From NCBI GenBank assembly GCA_963745035.1, contig CAVUVW010000013.1:448001-512000 (forward strand): a DNA stretch of 64,000 nt, given 5' to 3'. The notes below the pieces were generated by a model that was not told the origin of the DNA, did not search any database, and was given only the letters and a program-made list of their open reading frames with translations. Positions 25,153 to 58,555 of the stretch are shown here, one piece after another (the stretch's first letter is position 1; each line of letters opens with the position of its first letter). This stretch comes from an uncultured delta proteobacterium. Its GTDB lineage: Bacteria; Desulfobacterota; Binatia; UBA9968. Made by a program: the position numbers and the translations under genes.

Positions 25153-26259
25153 TCACAACCGCATCGGCATCAACACATATAAGTAGTTATCGACTCCCGC
25201 CTTACGAATGATACTCGGGCTCAACTCGTCCTTGAGCTCGATATCGATCTCGCCGTCCCCGCCGAGCACGCTCAGAACGTCGATCAGATAACGCGCATTA
25301 AATCCGATTGATAGCGGTTTGCCCTTGTACTCCGCCTCGATTTCTTCAACCGCCTCGCCCAGATCCGGGTTATTGGCGGAAATCGAAACTTTGCCGTCCG
25401 TGAACTCCATGCGAATTCCCTTGTAACGCTCGCTCGAGAGAATCGACACGCGGCGCAAAGCCTGGAGCAGCTCATCATGCTCTAGCTTTACGATATTCGG
25501 GTTTCCCTTCGGAATGACCTTTGTGTAATCGGGAAAGTCGCCGTCGATCAAGCGCATAAAAAGCTCGATCTTATCTTTCGTGACCAGTCCCATGTTTTCC
25601 TTGAAGCCGAGGGAAACAGCGCCGTCGGAGCCGTTCTCCAAAAGTTTCTTGAGCTCCGCCAAGCCCTTGCGCGGCAGGATCACGCCCTTGGCCAAACCGA
25701 AGGAACCAACGGCTTTTTCCTCGAAAGCGAGACGATGGCCGTCGGTGGCGACCATGCGAATGTTGCCGCTGTCGCCCTGCTCGATAAACACGCCGTTTAA
25801 ACTGTAACGTGTTTCATCGGTAGAAACCGCAAAAATCGTGCGTTCGATCATTTGATGCACAGTGGAGGCTGGAGTGGTCGACAGCGCCTTACCATCGAAC
25901 TTCGGAAACTGCGGGAATTCCTTTGCGTCGATGCCGACGATTTTAAAAACCGACTTTCCGCTGCGAATCTCCACCCAGTCGTTGTCCAGACGCTTTAATT
26001 GCACCTGCTCGTTGGGCGCTTCCCGAATGATCTCGTAAATCTTTTTCGCGTTTACGGTGACCGTGCCCTCTTTGACCACGTCGCCGTCGACTTCGCCTCT
26101 GACCCCTACTTCCAGATCGGTCGCGGTAACGCGAATGGACCCTTTGACGCACTCAAAAAGAACATTGGCGAGGATCGGCATGGTATTGCGCCGTTCCACA
26201 ATACTTTGCGTCCAATAAAGCGTTGCGAGAAGACTTTCCCGCTTGGCTTTAATCTCCAT
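25153..26259 (-). CDS. dnaN: DNA polymerase III beta sliding clamp
   Basis: ATDLE, ATDGHRL, GDFPDY and VLMPMRL motifs. Confidence 0.98.
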   Translation of the reverse strand: MEIKAKRESLLATLYWTQSIVERRNTMPILANVLFECVKGSIRVTATDLEVGVRGEVDGDVVKEGTVTVNAKKIYEIIREAPNEQVQLKRLDNDWVEIRSGKSVFKIVGIDAKEFPQFPKFDGKALSTTPASTVHQMIERTIFAVSTDETRYSLNGVFIEQGDSGNIRMVATDGHRLAFEEKAVGSFGLAKGVILPRKGLAELKKLLENGSDGAVSLGFKENMGLVTKDKIELFMRLIDGDFPDYTKVIPKGNPNIVKLEHDELLQALRRVSILSSERYKGIRMEFTDGKVSISANNPDLGEAVEEIEAEYKGKPLSIGFNARYLIDVLSVLGGDGEIDIELKDELSPSIIRKAGVDNYLYVLMPMRL

Positions 26260-26285
26260 ACTTTCCCCCTGTGACTTCTATTGCC

Positions 26286-26484
26286 TTACTTATATATAAA
26301 TTCAAGAAGTAATAGTAGAGGCTGTGGACAAGGCGGAAAACTTCGCTTTGGCGAGGAAAATCAAAACTCTAGCTTGTGACTTAAAACGGGAGCTTAATCT
26401 CGTTTTGCACTTCTTTAACGACGCGTTCGGATGAGGGCGTGGTCTTTCACAGCAACCTTGACCGTTAATCACAGGATATTCACA
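26286..26484. other. oriC unwinding region between dnaA and dnaN (AT-rich tract, DnaA-trios, DnaA boxes)
   Basis: TTACTTATATATAAATT, then AAG AAG TAA TAG TAG (26304-26318), AGGC and box TGTGGACAA (26323-26331). Further degenerate boxes at 26443-26451, 26465-26473 and 26476-26484. Confidence 0.85.
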
Positions 26485-26485
26485 G

Positions 26486-27821
26486 CTATTTGCGGATGTG
26501 CAGATTTCTCTCGAGCTTTTCGATGGTGATCTGCATCTGCGGGTCTTCTTTCATTTTCCGCTCGATGGTCTTAGATGCATGGATTACCGTCGAGTGATCC
26601 CGGCCGCCGAATTGGTCGCCGATGCCGGGGAAGGAAGCACCAGTGTACTTGCGGCAGAGATACATCGCTACCTGGCGCGGCAGCGCGATGTTTTGTGTTC
26701 TTCTCTTCGCTTTCAGGTCGTTGACTTTGATATTGAAATAGTCGCAGATCGTTTTTTGTATATTCTCGACCGTAATTTCCCTTTTCGCACCGTTCAGGGT
26801 ATTGCGCAGGACGTCTTTGGCCAAATCTACCGTAATCGTAGCTTTGGTAAGGGAGGCAAAGGCTCCGAGGCGGGTGAGAGATCCTTCCAACTCGCGCACG
26901 TTGGAATCGATATTCGAAGCCAGAAAGATCGCCACGTCGTGGGGCAGTTGGACCGACTCCGCCTCGGCCTTCTTCTGCAAGATCGCCACGCGCGTCTCCA
27001 TGTCGGGTGGTTGAATGTCGGCGATCAAACCCCACTCGAAGCGGTTCCGCAGACGGTCTTCGATACCAGGAATTTCCTTGGGAAATTTATCCGACGTGAT
27101 GACGATCTGTTTGTGCGATTCGTAGAGCGAGTTGAATGTGTGGAAAAATTCCTCCTGCGTTCGCTCTTTGCCCGCGATGAACTGCACGTCGTCGAGGATT
27201 AGGAGGTCCACGTTACGAAATTTTCGCTTGAATTCGTCCATCTTGTCGCGCCGAAGGGACGCGATCAGCTCGTTCATGAACGATTCCGAGCTCAGATAGC
27301 CCACTTTTAGGCCGGACCGCTGCGCCGTCGCGTGGTGGCCGATGGCGTTTACCAGATGAGTTTTTCCGAGGCCGACGCCGCCGTAGATAAACAAGGGATT
27401 GTAATTGTCTCCTGGCTGATTGGCCACCGCGACGCAGGCGGCGTGGGCAAACTGATTGCTGGCGCCGATCACGAAGTTCTCGAACGTATACTTTGCGACG
27501 AGATTGCTTGCGCGCTGCGGCTTGTCTCGCTCCCGTTCATCTTTTTTCGCGGCTTTTTCCGAGGTCGGCAGCTTTGCCGCTTTTTCATTGACTTGAAAAA
27601 TCACGCGCACGGCAAGCCGCGCCGACGAGCTCAACACGGCTTCAAGCTTGTTGATATAGTGTTCCGTGAGCCAATCGCGAAAAAACTTGTTGGGAACTTC
27701 TAAAACAACTTCATTTTTGTTTCGCGACACGAAACGAATCGGCGCAATCCAGGTCTCGAAATTTTGCGCGCCGATTTGCTCTTTGATTTCGGCTCAACGC
27801 CTGGGTCCATTGCTCGCTCAT
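26486..27821 (-). CDS. dnaA: Chromosomal replication initiator DnaA (1-nt insertion near 27794)
   Basis: GGVGLGKT, NVRELEG and GGRDHSTV motifs. Domain I (MSEQWTQAL|AEIKEQIGAQNFETWI) is restored from ATG 27821 by removing one base at 27794/27795. Confidence 0.96.
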
Positions 27822-50058: not shown

Positions 50059-50126
50059 AAACCTCCGTTCTCTTTTCGTGAAACCTCCGACATTTTGTTG
50101 ACAGGTTATTGCCGATCTACGATAAT
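50059..50126 (+). promoter_or_regulatory. pilB promoter with an upstream 9-bp direct repeat
   Basis: TTGACA (50098-50103)-17 nt-GATAAT (50121-50126); AAACCTCCG at 50059 and 50081. Confidence 0.6.
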
Positions 50127-50147
50127 TTAGTCCTTTCGCAGAAAAGC

Positions 50148-51875
50148 ATGGAACCACGTTTTGCCGAACTCCTAGTTAGAGGGGGGTTGGTTTCCCGCGA
50201 TCAACTGTCCGAAGCACAGAAAAGAGAACGGGAAAACGGCTCCAGTGTCGCCCGAGAAATCGTCCGCTTGGGCTACACCAATGAAGAAACTTTAACCCAG
50301 TTCCTCGGCAAACAATTCGGCATCGAATTGCTCGAGCTTGTCCCCGGCGAGATCGACGACGGCGTCTTCAGCGTGGTGCCGCCCCACATCGTCCAAAAAC
50401 ACCAGCTAATTCCGTTCAAGCTCGCAGGCTCGACTTTGACGGTAGCCATGTCCGATCCCACGGACTTGGTTGCGATCAATGAAGTCAAGTTCGTCACCGG
50501 ATACGGCGTGCGCGTCGTATTGGCGACGCCCTCCAATATTAAAAAGACCCTGGATCATCGGTTCGGCGGCGTCAGCTATGACGACGTGCTGAAAAAGTTC
50601 GGCGACGGCGAGATGGAGGTTGTCCAGGAGAGCGACGACGTCAATCTTCAAGAGTTGCAACAGGCTACGATGGATGCGCCGGTGGTGACGCTGGTGAACG
50701 CCATTTTGTCCGATGCCGCCAAGCGTCGCTGCAGCGATATCCACATCGAGCCGTACGAGAAGATCTTTCGCGTGCGGTTTCGCGTGGACGGAGTGCTCCA
50801 GGAAATCATGAGCCCGCCCTTGCGGCTTAAAAATGCCCTCGTCTCGCGCCTCAAAGTGATGGCGGGTTTGGATATCGCGGAGCGCCGCCTGACCCAGGAC
50901 GGTCGCATCAAGCTCAAGATGGGCGTGGGCGGCGAGCTCGACATTCGCGTTTCCATCCTGCCCACCCTGTTCGGCGAAAAGGTCGTGATGCGTCTGCTGG
51001 ACAAGTCTAATTTGCAGCTCGACATGGCAAAGCTCGGCTTCGATGCGCAAAACCTGAAGGATTTTCAAGAGGCGATTCACAAGCCGTACGGCATGATTCT
51101 GATCACCGGCCCGACCGGCAGCGGCAAGTCCACCACGCTGTATTCCGCTCTTTCCGAGCTCAACAAGGCGGATGTGAATATTTCTACGGCGGAAGATCCA
51201 GTCGAGTACAATTTGGTGGGCATCAACCAGGTGCAGGTTCGCGAGCAGATCGGGCTCAACTTTGCCGCCTGTCTGCGCTCGTTTCTGCGTCAGGACCCGG
51301 ACATCATCATGGTGGGCGAAATCCGCGACTTGGAAACCGCTCAGATTGCCATCAAAGCGGCGCTCACCGGTCATCTTGTCCTCAGTACTCTTCATACCAA
51401 TGACTGCCCGGCGACGGTGGACCGCCTCCTCAATATGGGAGCGGAGCCGTTTCTTTTGACGTCATCGATTAATTTGATTCTCGCCCAGCGGCTGGTGCGG
51501 CGAATCTGCGAGCAGTGCAAGGAGCCGATCGAAATCAAATCCGAAGTATTGATCACTCTAGGCGTGGACTCGGCCGAAGCCAGCGGCGGTTTTCCGGCGT
51601 TCCACGGCCGCGGCTGCGGCAACTGCGCCAACACCGGCTACCGCGGACGTCTGGCGGTCTACGAAGTCATGGTGATGCACGAAATGATCAAAGAATTGAT
51701 TCTAAAAGGCGCCTCGGCGATGGAGCTCAAGAGGGAAGCGGTCAAGCTTGGCATGAGCACGCTGCGCATGAGCGCCTTACAAAAAGTTCGCCAGGGACTT
51801 ACGACCGTCGATGAAACCATTCGCGTCACCGATACCGACAAAGGCTTCGGCTCGGTGTTCTCGCTCGGATTCTAA
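50148..51875 (+). CDS. pilB: Type IVa pilus assembly ATPase
   Basis: SDIHIEP, GPTGSGKST, EDPVE, LRQDPD, TGHLVLSTLH and CxxC pairs. Confidence 0.96.
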   Translation: MEPRFAELLVRGGLVSRDQLSEAQKRERENGSSVAREIVRLGYTNEETLTQFLGKQFGIELLELVPGEIDDGVFSVVPPHIVQKHQLIPFKLAGSTLTVAMSDPTDLVAINEVKFVTGYGVRVVLATPSNIKKTLDHRFGGVSYDDVLKKFGDGEMEVVQESDDVNLQELQQATMDAPVVTLVNAILSDAAKRRCSDIHIEPYEKIFRVRFRVDGVLQEIMSPPLRLKNALVSRLKVMAGLDIAERRLTQDGRIKLKMGVGGELDIRVSILPTLFGEKVVMRLLDKSNLQLDMAKLGFDAQNLKDFQEAIHKPYGMILITGPTGSGKSTTLYSALSELNKADVNISTAEDPVEYNLVGINQVQVREQIGLNFAACLRSFLRQDPDIIMVGEIRDLETAQIAIKAALTGHLVLSTLHTNDCPATVDRLLNMGAEPFLLTSSINLILAQRLVRRICEQCKEPIEIKSEVLITLGVDSAEASGGFPAFHGRGCGNCANTGYRGRLAVYEVMVMHEMIKELILKGASAMELKREAVKLGMSTLRMSALQKVRQGLTTVDETIRVTDTDKGFGSVFSLGF

Positions 51876-51947: not shown

Positions 51948-53174
51948 ATGGCAATATTTGTTTGGGAAGGAAGAACCGCCCAAGGAAGACTGGTCAAGGG
52001 CGACAATCTGGAAGCGCCGGATTTGGAAGCCGCGCTGACGCGCTTGCGCGAGCAGAGGATCCGCCCGATCGCGAGTCGGGTGCGGGAGAAAGGGAAAGGA
52101 TTAGAAAGAGAGCTCTCGATACCGGGCTTCGGCGACAAGGTTACGACGAAGGACATCTCGCTCGCTACGCGCCAGCTGGCGACCATGATCGACGCCGGGC
52201 TGCCGATCGTTCAATGCCTGGATATTCTTGCCCAGCAATCCGAGAGTAAGCTGCTTTGCAAGACCGTGAGCACGGTCAAAAAGGACGTCGAAGGAGGCAG
52301 CACCCTGGCGGACGCGCTGCGCAAACATCCGAAGATTTTTGACGACCTGTACGTGAATATGGTCGAGGCCGGCGAGGCCGGCGGTATTCTCAACACCATT
52401 CTCAATCGCATCGCCCTGTTCATCGAAAAGGCCAATCGCCTGAAGAAAAAAGTCAAAGGCGCGATGATCTATCCCTGCGCCATCGTCTGCGTGGCGGTCA
52501 TTGTCGTCGCCGTTTTGATGATCTTCGTCATTCCCGTATTCGCCGAGCTCTACGGCGGCATGGGCAAAGAGCTGCCGCTGCCGACGCAGATCTGTATCAA
52601 TATCAGCAACTGGTTCGTCGCTTATTGGTACGTTCTGGTTGCCGCTCTGACAGGGGTATTCATGGGAATTTCTTTTTACTACAAAACCCCCCACGGGCGC
52701 ATGAATATCGACCGACTGATGCTGCGCATGCCAATCATCGGCGATCTCTTGAGAAAAGTCGCCGTTGCCCGTTTTTCCCAGAACATGTCGCTGCTGCTGA
52801 GCTCGGGCGTGCCGATCTTGGATGGATTGGCGATCACCGGAAAAACCGCGGGCAACAAGGTCGTCGAGAAGGCGATTTTGGAGAGCCGCATCAGCATCAG
52901 CCAGGGGAAAACCGTCGCGGAGCCGTTGCGTGACAGCAAGATTTTTCCGCCTCTGGTCTGTCAGATGGTCGCGGTGGGGGAAAGCACCGGCGGCCTCGAT
53001 ACCATGCTCAAAAAAGTCGCCGAGTTGTACGAGGAAGAAGTAGATGACGCGGTGGCGAATCTTACCGCGATGATGGAGCCCATGATCATGGTTGTTTTGG
53101 GTGTTATCCTCGGCGGCCTGGTGATCGCCATGTATCTCCCGATCTTCCAGATGGGATCGTTGGTGGGCGGGTGA
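51948..53174 (+). CDS. pilC: Type IV pilus platform protein (T2SS F family)
   Basis: TRQLATMIDAGLP, AGEAGG.L and LTAMMEPMIMV..YLPIF motifs. Confidence 0.95.
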   Translation: MAIFVWEGRTAQGRLVKGDNLEAPDLEAALTRLREQRIRPIASRVREKGKGLERELSIPGFGDKVTTKDISLATRQLATMIDAGLPIVQCLDILAQQSESKLLCKTVSTVKKDVEGGSTLADALRKHPKIFDDLYVNMVEAGEAGGILNTILNRIALFIEKANRLKKKVKGAMIYPCAIVCVAVIVVAVLMIFVIPVFAELYGGMGKELPLPTQICINISNWFVAYWYVLVAALTGVFMGISFYYKTPHGRMNIDRLMLRMPIIGDLLRKVAVARFSQNMSLLLSSGVPILDGLAITGKTAGNKVVEKAILESRISISQGKTVAEPLRDSKIFPPLVCQMVAVGESTGGLDTMLKKVAELYEEEVDDAVANLTAMMEPMIMVVLGVILGGLVIAMYLPIFQMGSLVGG

Positions 53175-53230
53175 GTCCGTGGTTCACTACTTTCGTCGCC
53201 GCCGGCTGGCCGCTGGTTAGGCGCGCTGGC

Positions 53231-55258
53231 GTGAGTGAGGAGCACAGGGGTCTCGCGCAGAAGATCCGCTGGCTGCTGCTCTTGCGCGTGGTGATCGTTT
53301 CTTTTTTCCTCGGCGCGACGGCGCTGTTTCATTTCGTGCGCACCGAGGGCAATCTCGGCTACCTCGTCGATCTCTCCATTCCTTTAATTCTCGCGTATGT
53401 GATTTCCCTCGGTTCGGTTGCGCTCTTGCCGTATACCCGCGGTCTCCGGCTGTTCGCTCATGCGCAAGTCGGTTTTGACGTGGTGCTGATCACCGGCATC
53501 ATTTGGATCACCGGGGATATGACCAGTCCTTTTTCGGTTCTCTACAATCTGGCCGTAATGAACGGCGCCATTCTGCTTTTTTATCGCGGCGCGTTTTTCG
53601 CCGCTGCCTTTTCCGGCATGTCCTACGCGAGCCTGCTCATCTGGTCGCGCTATGCGAATTCCGGTGCGGACCTGCCGCTTTCGTGGCCGACGCTGTTTCC
53701 CATTGTGCAGAGTATAGCGAGCTATTTCATCATCGCGGGATTGAGCGGCTTCTTGACCAATAAACTGAGCGAAACGGAAAAATTACTGAAAGAGAAGCAA
53801 GAGGACTATCGCGACTTGGACGCGCTCAAGGACGCTCTTCTCCAGGGCATCGGCAGCGGAGTAGCCATTACAGATCCGGAAGGGCGAATCAACTATTTCA
53901 ACCGCCAAGCACAGGCGCTTACGACTCTGGACGAAACCGCGATCCAGGGCAAACGGCTGGATCAAATTTTCCCCGACTTAGGCGGCAATTTTCAGCGCAA
54001 TCTTGGCGCCGGCGCCATCGTTACCGACGAGCTATCCATCGGCGCGCTCCACAAGCAAATCCGTCTTACAGTCGCTCCTCTCAATAATGCTCGCGAGCAG
54101 TCGATCGGCTACGTCGCGATTTTTGACGACATCACCAAGCAGAAACAAATCGAAGAAAAGGTGCGCCTCGAAGAGGAACTGCGTCGGGCCAGAGAAGTTG
54201 AGCTCGCGCGCCACGCGCCCGAAGAGCAAAATTTTCAATTCGAGGGTGTTATCGGCAAGAGCGGCGGCATCGAAAAGATCTATCAGCTCGTCCGAAAAGT
54301 TTCGGCGAGCAACACCAATGTGCTGATCACCGGGGAAAGCGGCACCGGCAAGGAGCTCGTGGCCCGCGCGATTCATCTCAACGGGCCGAGGAAAGAACGG
54401 CCGTTCGTCGCAGTCAACTGTGGCGCGATTCCCGAAACCCTGATGGAGAGCGAGCTCTTTGGACACGTGCGCGGCGCCTTCACCGGGGCGGTGTCCGACC
54501 ACACGGGGCTTTTCAAACAGGCGGACCAGGGAACGATTTTTCTCGACGAGGTGGGCGAGTTGGCGCTTCATCTGCAGGTCAAACTACTGCGGGTGCTTCA
54601 AGAAAAGAGCTTTACGCCGGTCGGCGGCAGTAAACCCATTAAAGTCGATGTTCGGGTGATCTCGGCCACCAACAAGGATCTGCGCAAGGAATTGGAGGAA
54701 GGCCGCTTTCGGGAAGATCTATTTTACCGGCTCAATGTCGTACAGATGGTTATGCCTCCGCTACGCAGCAGAAAAGACGATGTTGCCGCGCTGGCGCATT
54801 ACTTTCTCCGGAAATTTGCCGCAGCGCATGGCAAGAGAGTGGAAGAAATCTCCAGCAGTACGCTGTTGCGGTTGATGAATCACTCCTATCCCGGCAATGT
54901 CCGGGAGCTGGAAAACATCATCGAGCATGCGGTCGCGGTGGCCGGCAAGAACATTCTGACGGACGAAGACTTGCCCCAACATTTGAGCAATGCCGCGATC
55001 GAACCCGCCGATCCGCTCGGAGATACCGATCCGGAGACCGCCGAGTTGTTCTTTGAAAAGGGAGTTTCCTTGGACGCTGAGTTGGAGACCTACGAGAGGC
55101 GTATTTTGCTCAGCGCTTTGAAGCGAGCCAACGGCGTGCAGAAAAGAGCCGCCGAAATCCTCGGTATCAATTATCGCTCACTGCGCCATCGCCTGGAGAA
55201 ATATGATCTTTTGGGCTCAAGGGCCGACCTCGTCGAGCGTTCCGAAGACGCGCAGTAA
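53231..55258 (+). CDS. Membrane-anchored sigma54-dependent activator: PilS-like TM sensor plus PAS fused to PilR-like AAA+ and HTH
   Basis: About six N-terminal TMs with PilS-like motifs (WL..LR, D..LIT..I..TG...SPF..LY), a PAS-like region, then GESGTGKE, ESELFGH.RGAFTGA, LDEVGE, FREDLFYRLNV, PGNVRELEN and a Fis-type HTH. No HisKA, HATPase or REC domain. Start is GTG 53231 or 53171. Confidence 0.9.
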   Translation: MSEEHRGLAQKIRWLLLLRVVIVSFFLGATALFHFVRTEGNLGYLVDLSIPLILAYVISLGSVALLPYTRGLRLFAHAQVGFDVVLITGIIWITGDMTSPFSVLYNLAVMNGAILLFYRGAFFAAAFSGMSYASLLIWSRYANSGADLPLSWPTLFPIVQSIASYFIIAGLSGFLTNKLSETEKLLKEKQEDYRDLDALKDALLQGIGSGVAITDPEGRINYFNRQAQALTTLDETAIQGKRLDQIFPDLGGNFQRNLGAGAIVTDELSIGALHKQIRLTVAPLNNAREQSIGYVAIFDDITKQKQIEEKVRLEEELRRAREVELARHAPEEQNFQFEGVIGKSGGIEKIYQLVRKVSASNTNVLITGESGTGKELVARAIHLNGPRKERPFVAVNCGAIPETLMESELFGHVRGAFTGAVSDHTGLFKQADQGTIFLDEVGELALHLQVKLLRVLQEKSFTPVGGSKPIKVDVRVISATNKDLRKELEEGRFREDLFYRLNVVQMVMPPLRSRKDDVAALAHYFLRKFAAAHGKRVEEISSSTLLRLMNHSYPGNVRELENIIEHAVAVAGKNILTDEDLPQHLSNAAIEPADPLGDTDPETAELFFEKGVSLDAELETYERRILLSALKRANGVQKRAAEILGINYRSLRHRLEKYDLLGSRADLVERSEDAQ

Positions 55259-55271
55259 CAAAGTTTGTCAC
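55255..55271. promoter_or_regulatory. Candidate upstream activator (bEBP) site
   Basis: Near-palindrome GTAACAAA-G-TTTGTCAC about 200 bp upstream of the sigma54 promoter; weaker copy at 55297-55313. Confidence 0.5.
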
Positions 55272-55465: not shown

Positions 55466-55481
55466 TGGCCTTTTTCTTGCT
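55466..55481 (+). promoter_or_regulatory. sigma54 -24/-12 promoter of pilA
   Basis: TGGCCT-N5-TTGCT with exact GG-N10-GC spacing, between the activator gene and the pilin. Confidence 0.75.
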
Positions 55482-55626
55482 CTACCGCAAGTGACGTTTT
55501 ACAACGTGGATTGTCATTTTAAAAAAGGGGGTGAGCCCGGACATTTGAATCGGCGGCTGAACTAGATCAACCAATCCACGTCGGGAAGTGAAAATCCAAA
55601 GTCAAAAGCTTACGAAAGGAAGAAAG

Positions 55627-56015
55627 ATGAATAGACTAAGACTACAAAATGAATCCGGCTTTACGCTCATCGAGTTGCTGGTGGTGGTCGCGATCATCGG
55701 TATTCTCGCAGCGATCGCAATTCCCCAGTTTGCGGCTTACAGAAAGCGAGGCCATGAGGCCCAGGTAAAATCCGATTTGAGAAACGCGGCGGTGGCTCAA
55801 GAAGCGTACTTTGCCGCACAGTCCGCTTACAAGGCCTCGTCTTCGGCGTTCACCAGTTCCACCGCGCCGGGATTCAATCCCACGACAGGAGTTAATGTAT
55901 TTGCGGCGGCTGGAACCAATACGTTTCATTGACCGCGACGCACGCGAACTGTGGTACGAACGTGTGGACGTTCAGCAGCGGTAACGGGACGATTACTGGC
56001 ACTGCGTGTCCATAA
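55627..56015 (+). CDS. pilA: Type IVa major pilin (1-nt deletion near 55924-55927)
   Basis: G|FTLIELLVVVAIIGILAAIAIP prepilin motif. Adding one base in ACGTTTCA extends the frame to ...LTATHANCGTNVWTFSSGNGTITGTACP*, which has a C-terminal Cys pair, followed by a terminator. Confidence 0.92.
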
Positions 56016-56049
56016 GCGAGTATGTAAAGTTATTTTCGTCGGTTAAGTT

Positions 56050-56079
56050 AAAAAGGGGGGGCCGCTTTGGCCCCCTTTT
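56050..56079 (+). terminator. Intrinsic (bidirectional) terminator after pilA
   Basis: AAAAAGGGGGGGCC-GCTTT-GGCCCCCTTTT. Confidence 0.82.
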
Positions 56080-56145
56080 CAGTTGTAAGAATCTGTTTTA
56101 AATCAAGCATATCTCTTGATACGCTCTTCCTAGCCGGTCGCATCA

Positions 56146-58555
56146 GTGTTTTACATTGCTAAATCACTGAACAAAGACGTTGTTGCCGTCGCCGTCCTTT
56201 TGGGAATGGTGATCTGGTTTTGTGACGAGATTGTCTTCGCGGCGAAGATTCCTTTCTTTCGCGATCTCGTAACTTACTTTTATCCGATCAAGTTCAGCGT
56301 TGCCGAAGCTTTTAAAGCAGGTGAGCTGCCGTTGTGGGACCGGCACATGGCGACTGGGTTCCCGATCATGGCCGGCTTTCAGTCGGCAGTCTTTTACCCG
56401 CCTAGCGCCGCGTACTACGTTCTGACATTCTTCCCCGCAATTCGATTTACCTTCATATTTCACTATGCCCTTGCCGCGACTGGCTCATACGTTTTGTTTC
56501 GATCCTGGAAATTCCCTGCGCATGTTTCACTGATCGGGGCTATTTTGTTTACGTTTGGCGGCACGACAGTATCGCTCTCAAACCTACTCAATCATTTTCA
56601 GAGCGCAGTTTGGCTACCGTGGGTCATCTATTCCTGGGAACGCGCTGTCAGAACAGCCGGATGGAAAAACGTTTCCATCTTCTCCATTGTTGCGCTTTGC
56701 CAACTCCTCGCTGGATCGCCGGAAATATTTCTTTTATCGATAGGTTTGGTGGCGCTCGACACATTTCGGCTTGCTCGCAACGAACAACTTCGCGGCATTT
56801 TTAAAATTTTTGCGATGTCGTTTGGTTCGGCTTGCATCGTTATTGGGCTCGGCATGATTCAACTGCTGCCGACAGCCGAGCTTGTTATGCAATCTCGCCG
56901 CGATCAAGCCATTCATATGGTGGAGGCCCTCAGTTGGTCACTCCAGCCGTCAAGTCTGATTGGTCTGTTGCTACCGACGCTCGAGGCAGACGCTTCGCTT
57001 ACGGTGGGCATTCGCTTGTTGTTCGCTCATGGCGTGCCGTTTCTGCTTAGCCACTACATTGGCGTTATTGGCATTTTCGGCTTGTGCGGGTGGTTCCGGG
57101 CGGCGCCGATGAAGGAACGCGCGGTCGTGCTCGCAGCGCTCGCGGGGAGCCTGCTGTTCGCCTTCGGCAGCTATACACCGGTCTACCCGTTTCTTTATGA
57201 TTGGGTCCCTGTGCTTCGCGTAATGCGTTTCCCCGAAAAATACTACTATCTGACTTTTGCGCTCCTGGTAGTCACAATCGTTCGCGGTCTCCGGCATATA
57301 GATGAGAATAAGAATTCTCACGCATGGTGGGCAATAGCGACGGCTATATCTGCTGCTTCGCTCATCGCGTATGTGACATTTCGCATGCCGGCCTCAGCTC
57401 CTTGCTGAGTTTCTTCTGCCGCGGATTTCAGGCGCAACTTCTCTTGAAACAGACCCAAGAACAATTGCGGCGATTCTGGTCATCTTGGAGAAGCAGATCG
57501 CCATCTCCTTAACCTTTGCCTTAGTATTTGGTCTTAGTCGGCTCGATGTTCTACGACCGGCTTTGGCTGGATCATTGCTCGTTCTAGCAGTATTTTTCGA
57601 TCTGAGCAGCGCTACAAAACCGCTGCACTTCGTGCGCGCCGAAAACGTTGTGAACAGCGCGGCCCGGATCCTTGAAAAACCGCCCGCCGATCACAGCCGG
57701 CTTTTCTACTATCCACCGGGAGACAACGTGCATCCAAGCTTTATGCGAGTCGCCGGTAATCCTACTTACGAGAAAGCGACCGAGATAGCGTTGAACAATC
57801 TGCTGCCCAACGCGGGCATGCTCTACGGCTTTGAGTATTTCCAGGACATCGACGCGCTTGGCAGCCGCGGCTACACTGATTTCCTAATGTTCATCAATTC
57901 TCTACCAGCCGAGCGGCGAGGCAAACTTCTGCGCGCAACTAACGTAAAGCACGTCGTGGCGTTTCACGCGTTGCACGTGAGAGGACTCGACCTTGTCCAG
58001 GAATTTCCCGAGCATTACTCCGCGCTCTACGAGGTTGCCGATGCGGTGCCCCGAGCATACGTTGCGAGGCGCTCGATTTTTGATCCAAATGTGAAAACTA
58101 CATTGGAACGGATGGCGAGCGACGATTTCGATCCGTTGCGCGACGTGATTCTCGACGCGCCGGTTCAGTTGGAGCCCAACGCCTCTTTCCAAGGAAGTGC
58201 GACGATCAATCGTTACGAGAATAACCGTGTGCTGGTTGACGCGCGGCTTAGTGACTCCGGCGTTTTGGTGCTGACCGATGCTTTTTATCCGGGATGGAAA
58301 GTTTTCGTCGACGGCAAGGAGCAAACCATTCGACGCGCCAACTACTTGTTTCGCGGGGTGGAGTTGCCGTCCGGCGCCCATCAGGTTGAGTTCGTTTATG
58401 ATCCACTTTCATTCAAGATCGGCCTGATCGTCTCGCTTCTCACGGTCGTTTTTCTGATCGCCGTACCTTTGGCGAGCGCGATACGGCGAAAAAGGCTTTT
58501 AAGACAATCGGCCCGAATCGTTTCTCATCAACCCGCGCGTGCTCCGGGCGGTTAG
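56146..58555 (+). CDS. YfhO-family polytopic membrane protein (GT-C fold glycosyltransferase), split by a 1-nt insertion near 57385
   Basis: RD...FYP, LPLW....TG.P and FYPP at the N-terminus; GVLVLTDAFYPGWK.FVDG...RANYLFRGV.L.G.H.V.F.Y.P at the C-terminus. ORFs 56146-57408 and 57485-58555 join via an open frame 2 from about 57386. Confidence 0.85.

Follow-up and report, generated by a model that had tools for sequence, protein, structure and literature searches.

Neither kinase nor receiver at the pilS-pilR position: a predicted membrane-bound, one-component sigma-54 activator beside the pilin gene of an uncultured Binatia bacterium

PilS-PilR, a sensor kinase with its response regulator, is the textbook regulator of type IV pilin genes. 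How might pilin production be controlled at a locus where the place of this pair, between pilC and pilA, is taken by one gene that encodes neither a kinase nor a receiver domain? The question is raised by a 64,000-nucleotide (nt) stretch of an uncultured delta proteobacterium of the class Binatia (UBA9968; GenBank assembly GCA_963745035.1, contig CAVUVW010000013.1, positions 448,001 to 512,000 of the forward strand), hereafter the window, in whose own numbering all positions are given. The gene at this place joins a PilS-type membrane sensor to the output half of a PilR-type activator, and we propose, with moderate confidence, that its product, an integral membrane protein, activates the adjacent pilin gene as a one-component regulator dependent on sigma-54, with the origin, target, pilin-responsive switch and local geometry set out below.

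A sequence-only reading of this stretch had described an uninterrupted open reading frame (ORF) at the pilS/pilR position, coding for about six transmembrane helices (TMs), a PAS-like region, a charged linker, an intact AAA+ domain and a helix-turn-helix (HTH), with no kinase and no receiver; the translation, the neighbouring genes, Pfam and the motifs all bear this description out. Positions 53231-55258 of the plus strand form one intact ORF of 675 residues with no internal stop (Table 1). Within it, Sigma54_activat (PF00158) matches amino acids (aa) 340-506 with 242.5 bits and AAA_lid_14 matches aa 512-589, and the translation carries the motifs FDDIT, KQKQIEEKVRLEEELRRARE (the charged helical linker), GESGTGKE and GAFTGA. 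HisKA, HATPase_c and Response_reg have no Pfam match in the protein, even at E<=1, and the named activators of NCBIfam match only below their thresholds, PrdR scoring best with 383 bits where 795 are required. The protein passes as a sigma-54 activator by its AAA+ domain with Walker A and B, GAFTGA and arginine fingers, and it is neither a PilS kinase, lacking HisKA and HATPase_c, nor a PilR response regulator, lacking the receiver (REC). Database sources name such proteins 'response regulator PilR', a label that is wrong because they have no receiver domain. In nearly all of 37 relatives a start codon stands where the window has the GTG at 53231, and in 20 of the 37 in-frame stops lie within the 20 codons upstream; this GTG is very likely the true start, the mechanical ORF start at 53171 being probably unused.

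An AlphaFold2 model built on 43 family members (mean per-residue confidence, pLDDT, 78; predicted template-modelling score 0.41) places helices at aa 2-37, 42-68, 72-94, 100-142 and 152-206, consistent with six membrane helices, behind which residues 210-300 take up a PAS fold and residues 302-327 a helix leading to the AAA+ domain with its lid and the HTH; pLDDT falls below 50 at aa 324-333, between the linker helix and the AAA+ domain. The positions of Walker A, GAFTGA, Walker B, the sensor and the arginine finger are invariant across the 43 members, down to 40% identity, and by this conservation the output half of the regulator looks fully competent.

Could such a gene be a product of assembly, or a decaying gene, with two genes joined by misassembly or a recent deletion in this genome only? 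The genome comes in 28 contigs with an estimated contamination of 5.8%, and the neighbouring pilA has a one-base gap in the assembly, all of which would suit that explanation. Against it, the region between the sensor and the AAA+ domain (54100-54260), where a read-spanning check had been suggested, is crossed by a gap-free 824-nt contig of run X6 (53537-54360), and run X1, which belongs to a different study, adds two contigs of 115 nt over 54190-54304; since these contigs come from two other studies, the junction is independently bridged and misassembly was not seen. Together with the invariant catalytic motifs and the uninterrupted architecture found in 52 loci and in 120 of 120 listed database homologues, the bridging contigs rule this explanation out with near certainty. 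Coverage of 53208-54143 by X1, X4 and X15 is nil or near nil, and depth peaks over the AAA+ and pilin N-terminal stretches stem from conserved genes of other organisms; no inference was drawn from either.

The fused form is shared by the class to which the window belongs. A query with aa 1-340 found 629 proteins at E<=1e-3 in a collection of 5.8 billion proteins; among the 120 best listed homologues, PF25323 (6TM_PilS) and PF00158 occur together in every one, and PF00512, PF02518 and PF00072 in none. Scanning one genome per species gave 79 loci, 52 of them with a single ORF holding both modules, and their record titles mostly read Candidatus Binatia or the older 'Deltaproteobacteria', a few naming other phyla (Chloroflexota, Planctomycetales, Margulisiibacteriota, Acidiferrales and others). 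Within the window's class, the PilS-type N-terminal module (N-module) was found in 45 of 121 sampled genomes; of the 46 listed matches, 44 have open frames of at least 625 aa and none falls in the 530-620 aa range typical of kinases. Ten loci drawn from eight families of the class are all fused, nine of them as single intact two-module ORFs; in L087 an in-frame TAA breaks the fused gene, and a 505-aa ORF retains only the last part of the N-module. Relatives within the class do not, then, uniformly keep pilS and pilR apart, as they might have done had the fusion been peculiar to the window: they are fused, and separate pilS and pilR were seen only in lineages more distant than this class. In the wider phylum the N-module matches in 154 of 201 sampled genomes, mostly in frames of 520-640 aa. 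Nine rows there have frames of at least 660 aa, one being the window itself; the other eight, all examined, comprise four fused genes (G076 from the same class; G026, G020 and G036 from other classes) and four ordinary PilS genes, two with the start of PilR visible downstream.

Seven near-identical fused loci (L002, L024, L035, L042, L045, L053 and L054) bear titles that name other phyla, respectively Chloroflexota, Udaeobacter, Acidiferrales, Planctomycetales, Eisenbacteria, Myxococcales and Margulisiibacteriota; because the ppdK-pilB-pilC synteny is kept, they suggest mis-binned or mislabelled contigs rather than gene transfer. The 533-aa protein of L047 (positions 319-1920) combines a PAS-like stretch with AAA+ and HTH_8 but has no membrane domain; it sits on a long branch inside the fused clade, with no pilB or pilC near its gene, and has the look of a soluble form derived from the fused regulator. 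A second match occurs in G202. In a deeper fused clade (L048-L057), pilB and pilC stand about 1.2 kb apart, a gap that the window's clade does not have and that is likely filled by a pilT-like gene, and the loci with separate regulators L058, L062 and L068 carry an ORF of 366-379 aa between the same two genes.

From what did the fused gene arise? An exhaustive phmmer search with aa 1-320 against 1.84 billion representatives gave 3777 hits. By Pfam, the best 79 of these comprise 9 full-length fused proteins, 1 PAS-Sigma54 fragment, 49 proteins with 6TM_PilS and HisKA, and 20 fragments, which makes PilS-type kinases the closest relatives of the sensor module outside the fused family. Directly after pilC, L058, L062 and L068 encode a 6TM_PilS-PAS-HisKA-HATPase_c kinase of 560-566 aa followed by a REC-Sigma54_activat-HTH_8 protein; in L065 the same place is taken by a kinase and PilR, the kinase lacking a PF25323 match at E<=1e-4. 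By BLASTP, aa 8-325 of the window's protein align with aa 20-349 of the L058 PilS at 29% identity, the HisKA match of that kinase beginning at aa 345, and aa 337-660 align with aa 183-501 of the adjacent PilR at 53% identity, starting at the first AAA+ residue, past REC and its linker. Only aa 326-336 remain unaccounted for by the two alignments. Such a junction is what would be expected if a single in-frame deletion had begun at the PilS H-box and removed everything up to the AAA+ domain of PilR, receiver and linker included. This map suits the earlier proposal that both phosphotransfer modules were lost together, one deletion sufficing for the dimerisation and histidine-phosphotransfer (DHp) domain, the catalytic and ATP-binding (CA) domain, the receiver and the receiver-AAA+ linker, and the N-terminal domain proves homologous to PilS over its whole length, with the buried signature residues in common.

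The trees agree with this derivation. In a tree of the C-terminal (AAA+) module (71 rows, among them no experimentally studied PilR; quick search, LG+G4), the fused forms make up a 27-row clade (23 full-length, 4 cut or partial) with a support of 98 in the Shimodaira-Hasegawa-like approximate likelihood-ratio test (SH-aLRT). That clade is nested in one of 34 rows (SH-aLRT 99), which also takes in all four syntenic PilRs and three more activators and excludes every one of the 21 other activators from the same genome. In an N-module tree of 80 rows, 30 of 32 fused forms share one clade at 99, with P0141 and P0163 lying among the kinases; the best tree with all 32 constrained to one group exceeds the free quick tree by 17.2 in log-likelihood (p = 0.71 in the approximately unbiased test, p-AU). 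Multiple origins of the fusion were dropped, as the constrained tree is the better one, and a single origin is compatible with the data, being not rejected and not proven. Descent of the fused gene from pilS-pilR is well supported by these alignments and trees. An ancestral pilC-pilS-pilR-pilA locus would have lost, in frame, the DHp and CA domains of PilS and the receiver of PilR with its linker, and the remainder would read PilS(6TM-PAS-helix)-short tether-PilR(AAA+-lid-HTH).

Which gene might such a regulator control? The pilin gene follows it in the window and in 48 loci, the mature N-terminus FTLIELLVVVAIIGILAAIAIPQ being invariant; nine loci lack a downstream pilin gene, four of these having less than 300 nt of flank. 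The sigma-54 pattern TGG[CT]-N7-T[TG]GC occurs in 43 of the 49 intergenic regions, always 162-240 nt past the regulator stop. An alignment of the upstream regions of the window's sub-clade contains one strongly conserved block, GT[AG]ACAAA-N-TTTGT[CT]AC, whose palindromic core recurs, with at most one mismatch, in 33 of 49 loci and mostly in the corresponding position, and a degenerate form of the 17-mer occurs once in the 7.43-Mb genome, at the stop codon of the regulator. This position and conservation make the palindrome a candidate enhancer about 200 bp from the promoter. Within the same genome, which has about 27 full sigma-54 activators and one RpoN, the fused regulator is the one PF25323 gene, with no second 6TM_PilS gene. 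These conserved DNA motifs support pilA as the target of the regulator: its HTH would bind the palindrome that overlaps the gene's own stop codon, and its AAA+ ring would remodel sigma-54 RNA polymerase at the -24/-12 element of pilA, which lies some 200 bp downstream. TTTGTCA/TGACAAA-type repeats are present in other arrangements in L041, L044 and L048, and the other 14 of 17 deeper-clade loci examined have no palindrome, or only unrelated GC-rich or other repeats; a general enhancer model across the clades was sought and none found.

How would the output half be switched? Unlike PilS-PilR, the fused form has no DHp histidine, no catalytic ATP-binding domain and no receiver aspartate, so that phosphotransfer is impossible; sensor and output are one polypeptide, and the activator is an integral membrane protein. 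In Pseudomonas aeruginosa the six membrane segments of PilS bind PilA, and deletion of pilA leaves PilR hyperactive, as summarised in PMC6058289 (citing Kilmury and Burrows 2016). By analogy, the six-helix domain of the fused form would report the inner-membrane pilin pool as PilS does, a full pool turning the activator off in a negative feedback, and we infer that the domain most likely still reports membrane pilin. Since phosphotransfer is impossible, occupancy of the sensor would then have to change AAA+ pairing or ring assembly directly: the state of the membrane-PAS module would control how the tethered AAA+ domains pair, or assemble into a ring, in the plane of the membrane.

Such control would be loosely comparable to the negative control of NtrC1-type activators. 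In activators of the NtrC1/NtrC4/DctD type (structures 1ny5, 3dzd and 4l4u), a helical linker holds the AAA+ domains as an inactive dimer, and by phmmer aa 298-571 of the window's protein match residues 96-370 of 1ny5, linker included. Both have a regulatory, dimerising module, a helix and then the AAA+ domain; in the fused form, by contrast, the upstream module is a membrane-PAS sensor, not a receiver, and the linker of the family is not conserved. The KQKQIEEKVRLEEELRRARE helix is conserved only in the window's sub-clade; with a linker that varies in this way among family members, signalling through a rigid helix cannot be general, and no one mechanism carried by a helix is evident.

The regulator would, moreover, be inserted into the membrane during its synthesis and act locally on the neighbouring promoter, a local action that is probable because the only detectable site lies at the end of the regulator's own gene. 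At its most specific, the proposal is of a phosphorylation-free loop in which inner-membrane pilin binds the six-helix domain and so sets the closure of the AAA+ ring, with the DNA held at the membrane and the action essentially in cis, owing to co-translational insertion beside an enhancer that overlaps the gene's own stop codon; this full loop we put forward tentatively, as a possibility somewhat short of even.

Several observations weigh against these proposals. On the side of the DNA, the -24/-12 pattern shows no significant excess in the window, where 3.47 matches are expected and 6 were seen, a count reached in 14 of 100 shuffles, and its weight comes only from conservation among related, non-independent sequences. 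Of the 49 loci, 16, among them every member of the deep clade, lack the palindrome or have a different one, and only a single palindrome was found at the locus, whereas many sigma-54 activators use two or more sites. On the side of the protein, the deeper-clade linker is acidic and proline-rich, and in P0163 it is nearly absent, and the existence of L047, a soluble relative without a membrane domain inside the fused clade, suggests that the output half may work untethered. As to the signal, PF25323 covers, besides PilS, the ubiquinone sensor RegB (as described in PMC3000548) and the ammonia sensor GrtK (as described in PMC12918730), and because the family spans several signals, membership of it alone names none.

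The last of these points opens the possibility that protein and target are as proposed and the signal is not pilin, the six-helix or PAS domain reading another membrane or cytoplasmic cue, for example quinone redox state. RegB, as PMC3000548 describes it, binds ubiquinone through a buried TM1 arginine and a GGXXNPF loop between TM3 and TM4; the fused form likewise has the PF25323 six-helix domain, an invariant TM1 arginine and a short TM3-TM4 loop ending in PF. Our comparison of the sensor, of 32 fused forms with 48 PilS kinases, bears on both sides. R19 is present in all 32 fused forms and all 48 kinases, Q79 in 31 and 47, and D83 in 32 and 44 (the other four kinases having Glu), and the T94-G95...S99 loop, G120, A125 and Y132 are common to both groups. 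P100, one of only two fused-specific positions in the whole module, is found in 31 of 32 fused forms against 9 of 48 kinases, and it makes the loop, TGxxxSPF (TGDMTSPF in the window), more like GGXXNPF. The arginine and the loop residues are nevertheless also present in the PilS kinases, and may be features of the fold; the nearest relatives of the module over its full length are 6TM-PAS-HisKA kinases, three of them (L058, L062 and L068 in the N-module tree) adjacent to pilC. RegB is, besides, a kinase with a partner, RegA, its loop motif is not identical, and its second buried TM1 residue, a Gln seven past the Arg, is absent from the fused form; the likeness of the motifs was judged by eye. 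A co-fold of the membrane domain (aa 1-195, 43-row alignment) with residues 12-70 of the pilin (37-row alignment), run without controls, returned a score of 0.00 with a mark of 0.32, and speaks neither for binding nor against it. We regard the RegB-like loop as a lead for a redox cue, not as evidence, and a signal other than pilin as unlikely, at roughly one chance in five; if it were so, pilin transcription would follow the energy or redox status of the cell and not its stock of pilin.

A passive role of the membrane domain would accommodate the degenerate linkers and L047. The activator would then be constitutive and controlled by its amount or turnover, with the membrane domain anchoring or positioning it, for instance at the pole near the pilus machine, or tethering it for proteolytic release. 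A linker that degenerates to an acidic, proline-rich stretch, or all but disappears, is what a passive tether would show, and L047 would be its soluble derivative. The membrane domain of PilS is also said to be needed for polar targeting, to judge by the title of a report by Ethier and Boyd from 2000. A mere anchor, however, would have no need of R19, Q79, D83 and the PAS core residues, which are invariant or nearly so down to about 30% identity, and a soluble form would have no internal Met to start from, the translation containing none between the membrane domain and the AAA+ domain. We think a passive anchor improbable, and retain a membrane domain that senses pilin as the preferred reading.

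How does this regulator stand beside systems already described? With PilS-PilR, as found in P. aeruginosa and in the layout of L058, L062 and L068, it shares the six-helix domain with its buried signature residues, the PAS domain, a sigma-54 AAA+/HTH_8 output that falls in one clade with the syntenic PilRs, the place behind pilC and a predicted sigma-54 promoter ahead of the pilin gene. ToxR, TcpP and CadC, as presented in the survey PMC10269533, likewise combine sensor and DNA-binding domain in one membrane-anchored polypeptide that reaches the promoter from the membrane. Theirs, in the terms of that survey, is an N-terminal winged helix with one membrane helix, a periplasmic sensor and sigma-70, whereas in the fused form six helices stand at the N-terminus and a Fis-type HTH at the C-terminus, and an ATP-driven ring works on sigma-54. 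The same survey of membrane-bound transcription regulators (PMC10269533) does not mention sigma-54 activators and contains no hit for sigma, NtrC or enhancer. No description of the fused architecture was found in the full-text literature searched, including that on Binatota pili, a body of literature that leaves subscription journals mostly outside its scope.

Table 1. Features of the fused regulator and its locus, in positions of the window
Feature	Position	Strand	Basis
Fused regulator, 675 aa: 6TM_PilS, PAS, linker, sigma-54 AAA+, lid, HTH_8	53231..55258	+	translation, Pfam, start codon, family comparison
Six-helix PilS-type membrane domain, aa 6-185	53246..53785	+	PF25323, 51.8 bits, cut-off 27
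PAS domain, aa 200-305	53828..54145	+	PAS_4, PAS and PAS_9 (Pfam); modelled beta strands 210-300
Junction: helix aa 302-327, homologous to the PilS helix preceding the H-box, then a variable tether of about 12 residues	54134..54247	+	BLASTP, model, family alignment, contigs
Sigma-54 interaction AAA+ domain and lid, aa 340-589	54248..54997	+	Walker A GESGTGKE, GAFTGA, Walker B DE
Fis-type HTH_8 DNA-binding domain, aa 618-658	55082..55204	+	Pfam
17-bp palindrome GTAACAAAGTTTGTCAC, candidate enhancer (upstream activating sequence)	55255..55271		overlaps the TAA stop of the regulator
Sigma-54 -24/-12 element TGGCCTTTTTCTTGC	55466..55480	+	146 nt before the pilA ATG; conserved in relatives
pilB, type IV pilus extension ATPase	50109..51875	+	T2SSE 476 bits and MshEN; kept upstream in relatives
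pilC, platform protein	51948..53174	+	T2SSF 218 bits; directly upstream of the fused gene in 55 loci
pilA, major pilin	55627..55932	+	N_methyl motif; reads 101 aa, one base missing after 55927

Upstream of the regulator lie grpE, recO, ppdK, pilB and pilC; on its other side the pilin gene is followed by two ORFs, one of 420 aa without a name and one that is YfhO-like, and by glycosyltransferases. In 36 relatives the pilin is 114-139 aa long and ends in a Cys...Cys loop except in the four most distant ones (L048, L050, L054 and L057). In contigs of X6 (DNA) and X15 (an RNA library) an additional T follows 55927 and preserves the long pilA frame; the stop at 101 aa probably reflects an assembly error or strain variation and does not characterise the lineage. 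The X15 contig, 55477-56100, begins inside the -12 element and can show neither a transcript start nor transcription. Behind pilA, 56146-57408 (420 aa, no family match) and 57485-58555 (356 aa, matching YfhO over its final 80 positions only) recur in most relatives; combined, they have about the length of a YfhO-type membrane glycosyltransferase and may represent a pilin-modifying enzyme. PMT-family and GT2 glycosyltransferases lie just past them on the minus strand. The window also holds atpD, lon, dnaJ, dnaK and grpE, and dnaN and dnaA at 25156-27730, about 26 kb upstream, place the pilin locus near a probable replication origin.

Our findings suggest that phosphotransfer may be dispensable to this textbook system: the sensor of PilS and the output of PilR are wired together with the whole phosphorelay removed, in an arrangement kept across a large uncultured lineage of soil and sediment. 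If the sensor still works, a conformational signal would drive the AAA+ activator directly, which bears on PilS-type signalling, and a ring-forming, DNA-looping sigma-54 activator would operate while embedded in the membrane, raising the questions of how a ring assembles in two dimensions and how a promoter is brought to the membrane. Should the phosphorylation-free loop prove true, the regulator would be a natural integral-membrane sigma-54 machine and a two-component system collapsed into one with its sensor retained. To synthetic biology it offers a compact one-gene part, with a membrane signal in and a sigma-54 output. This uncultured soil lineage thus probably controls the production of its pilin from the membrane, without a phosphate relay.

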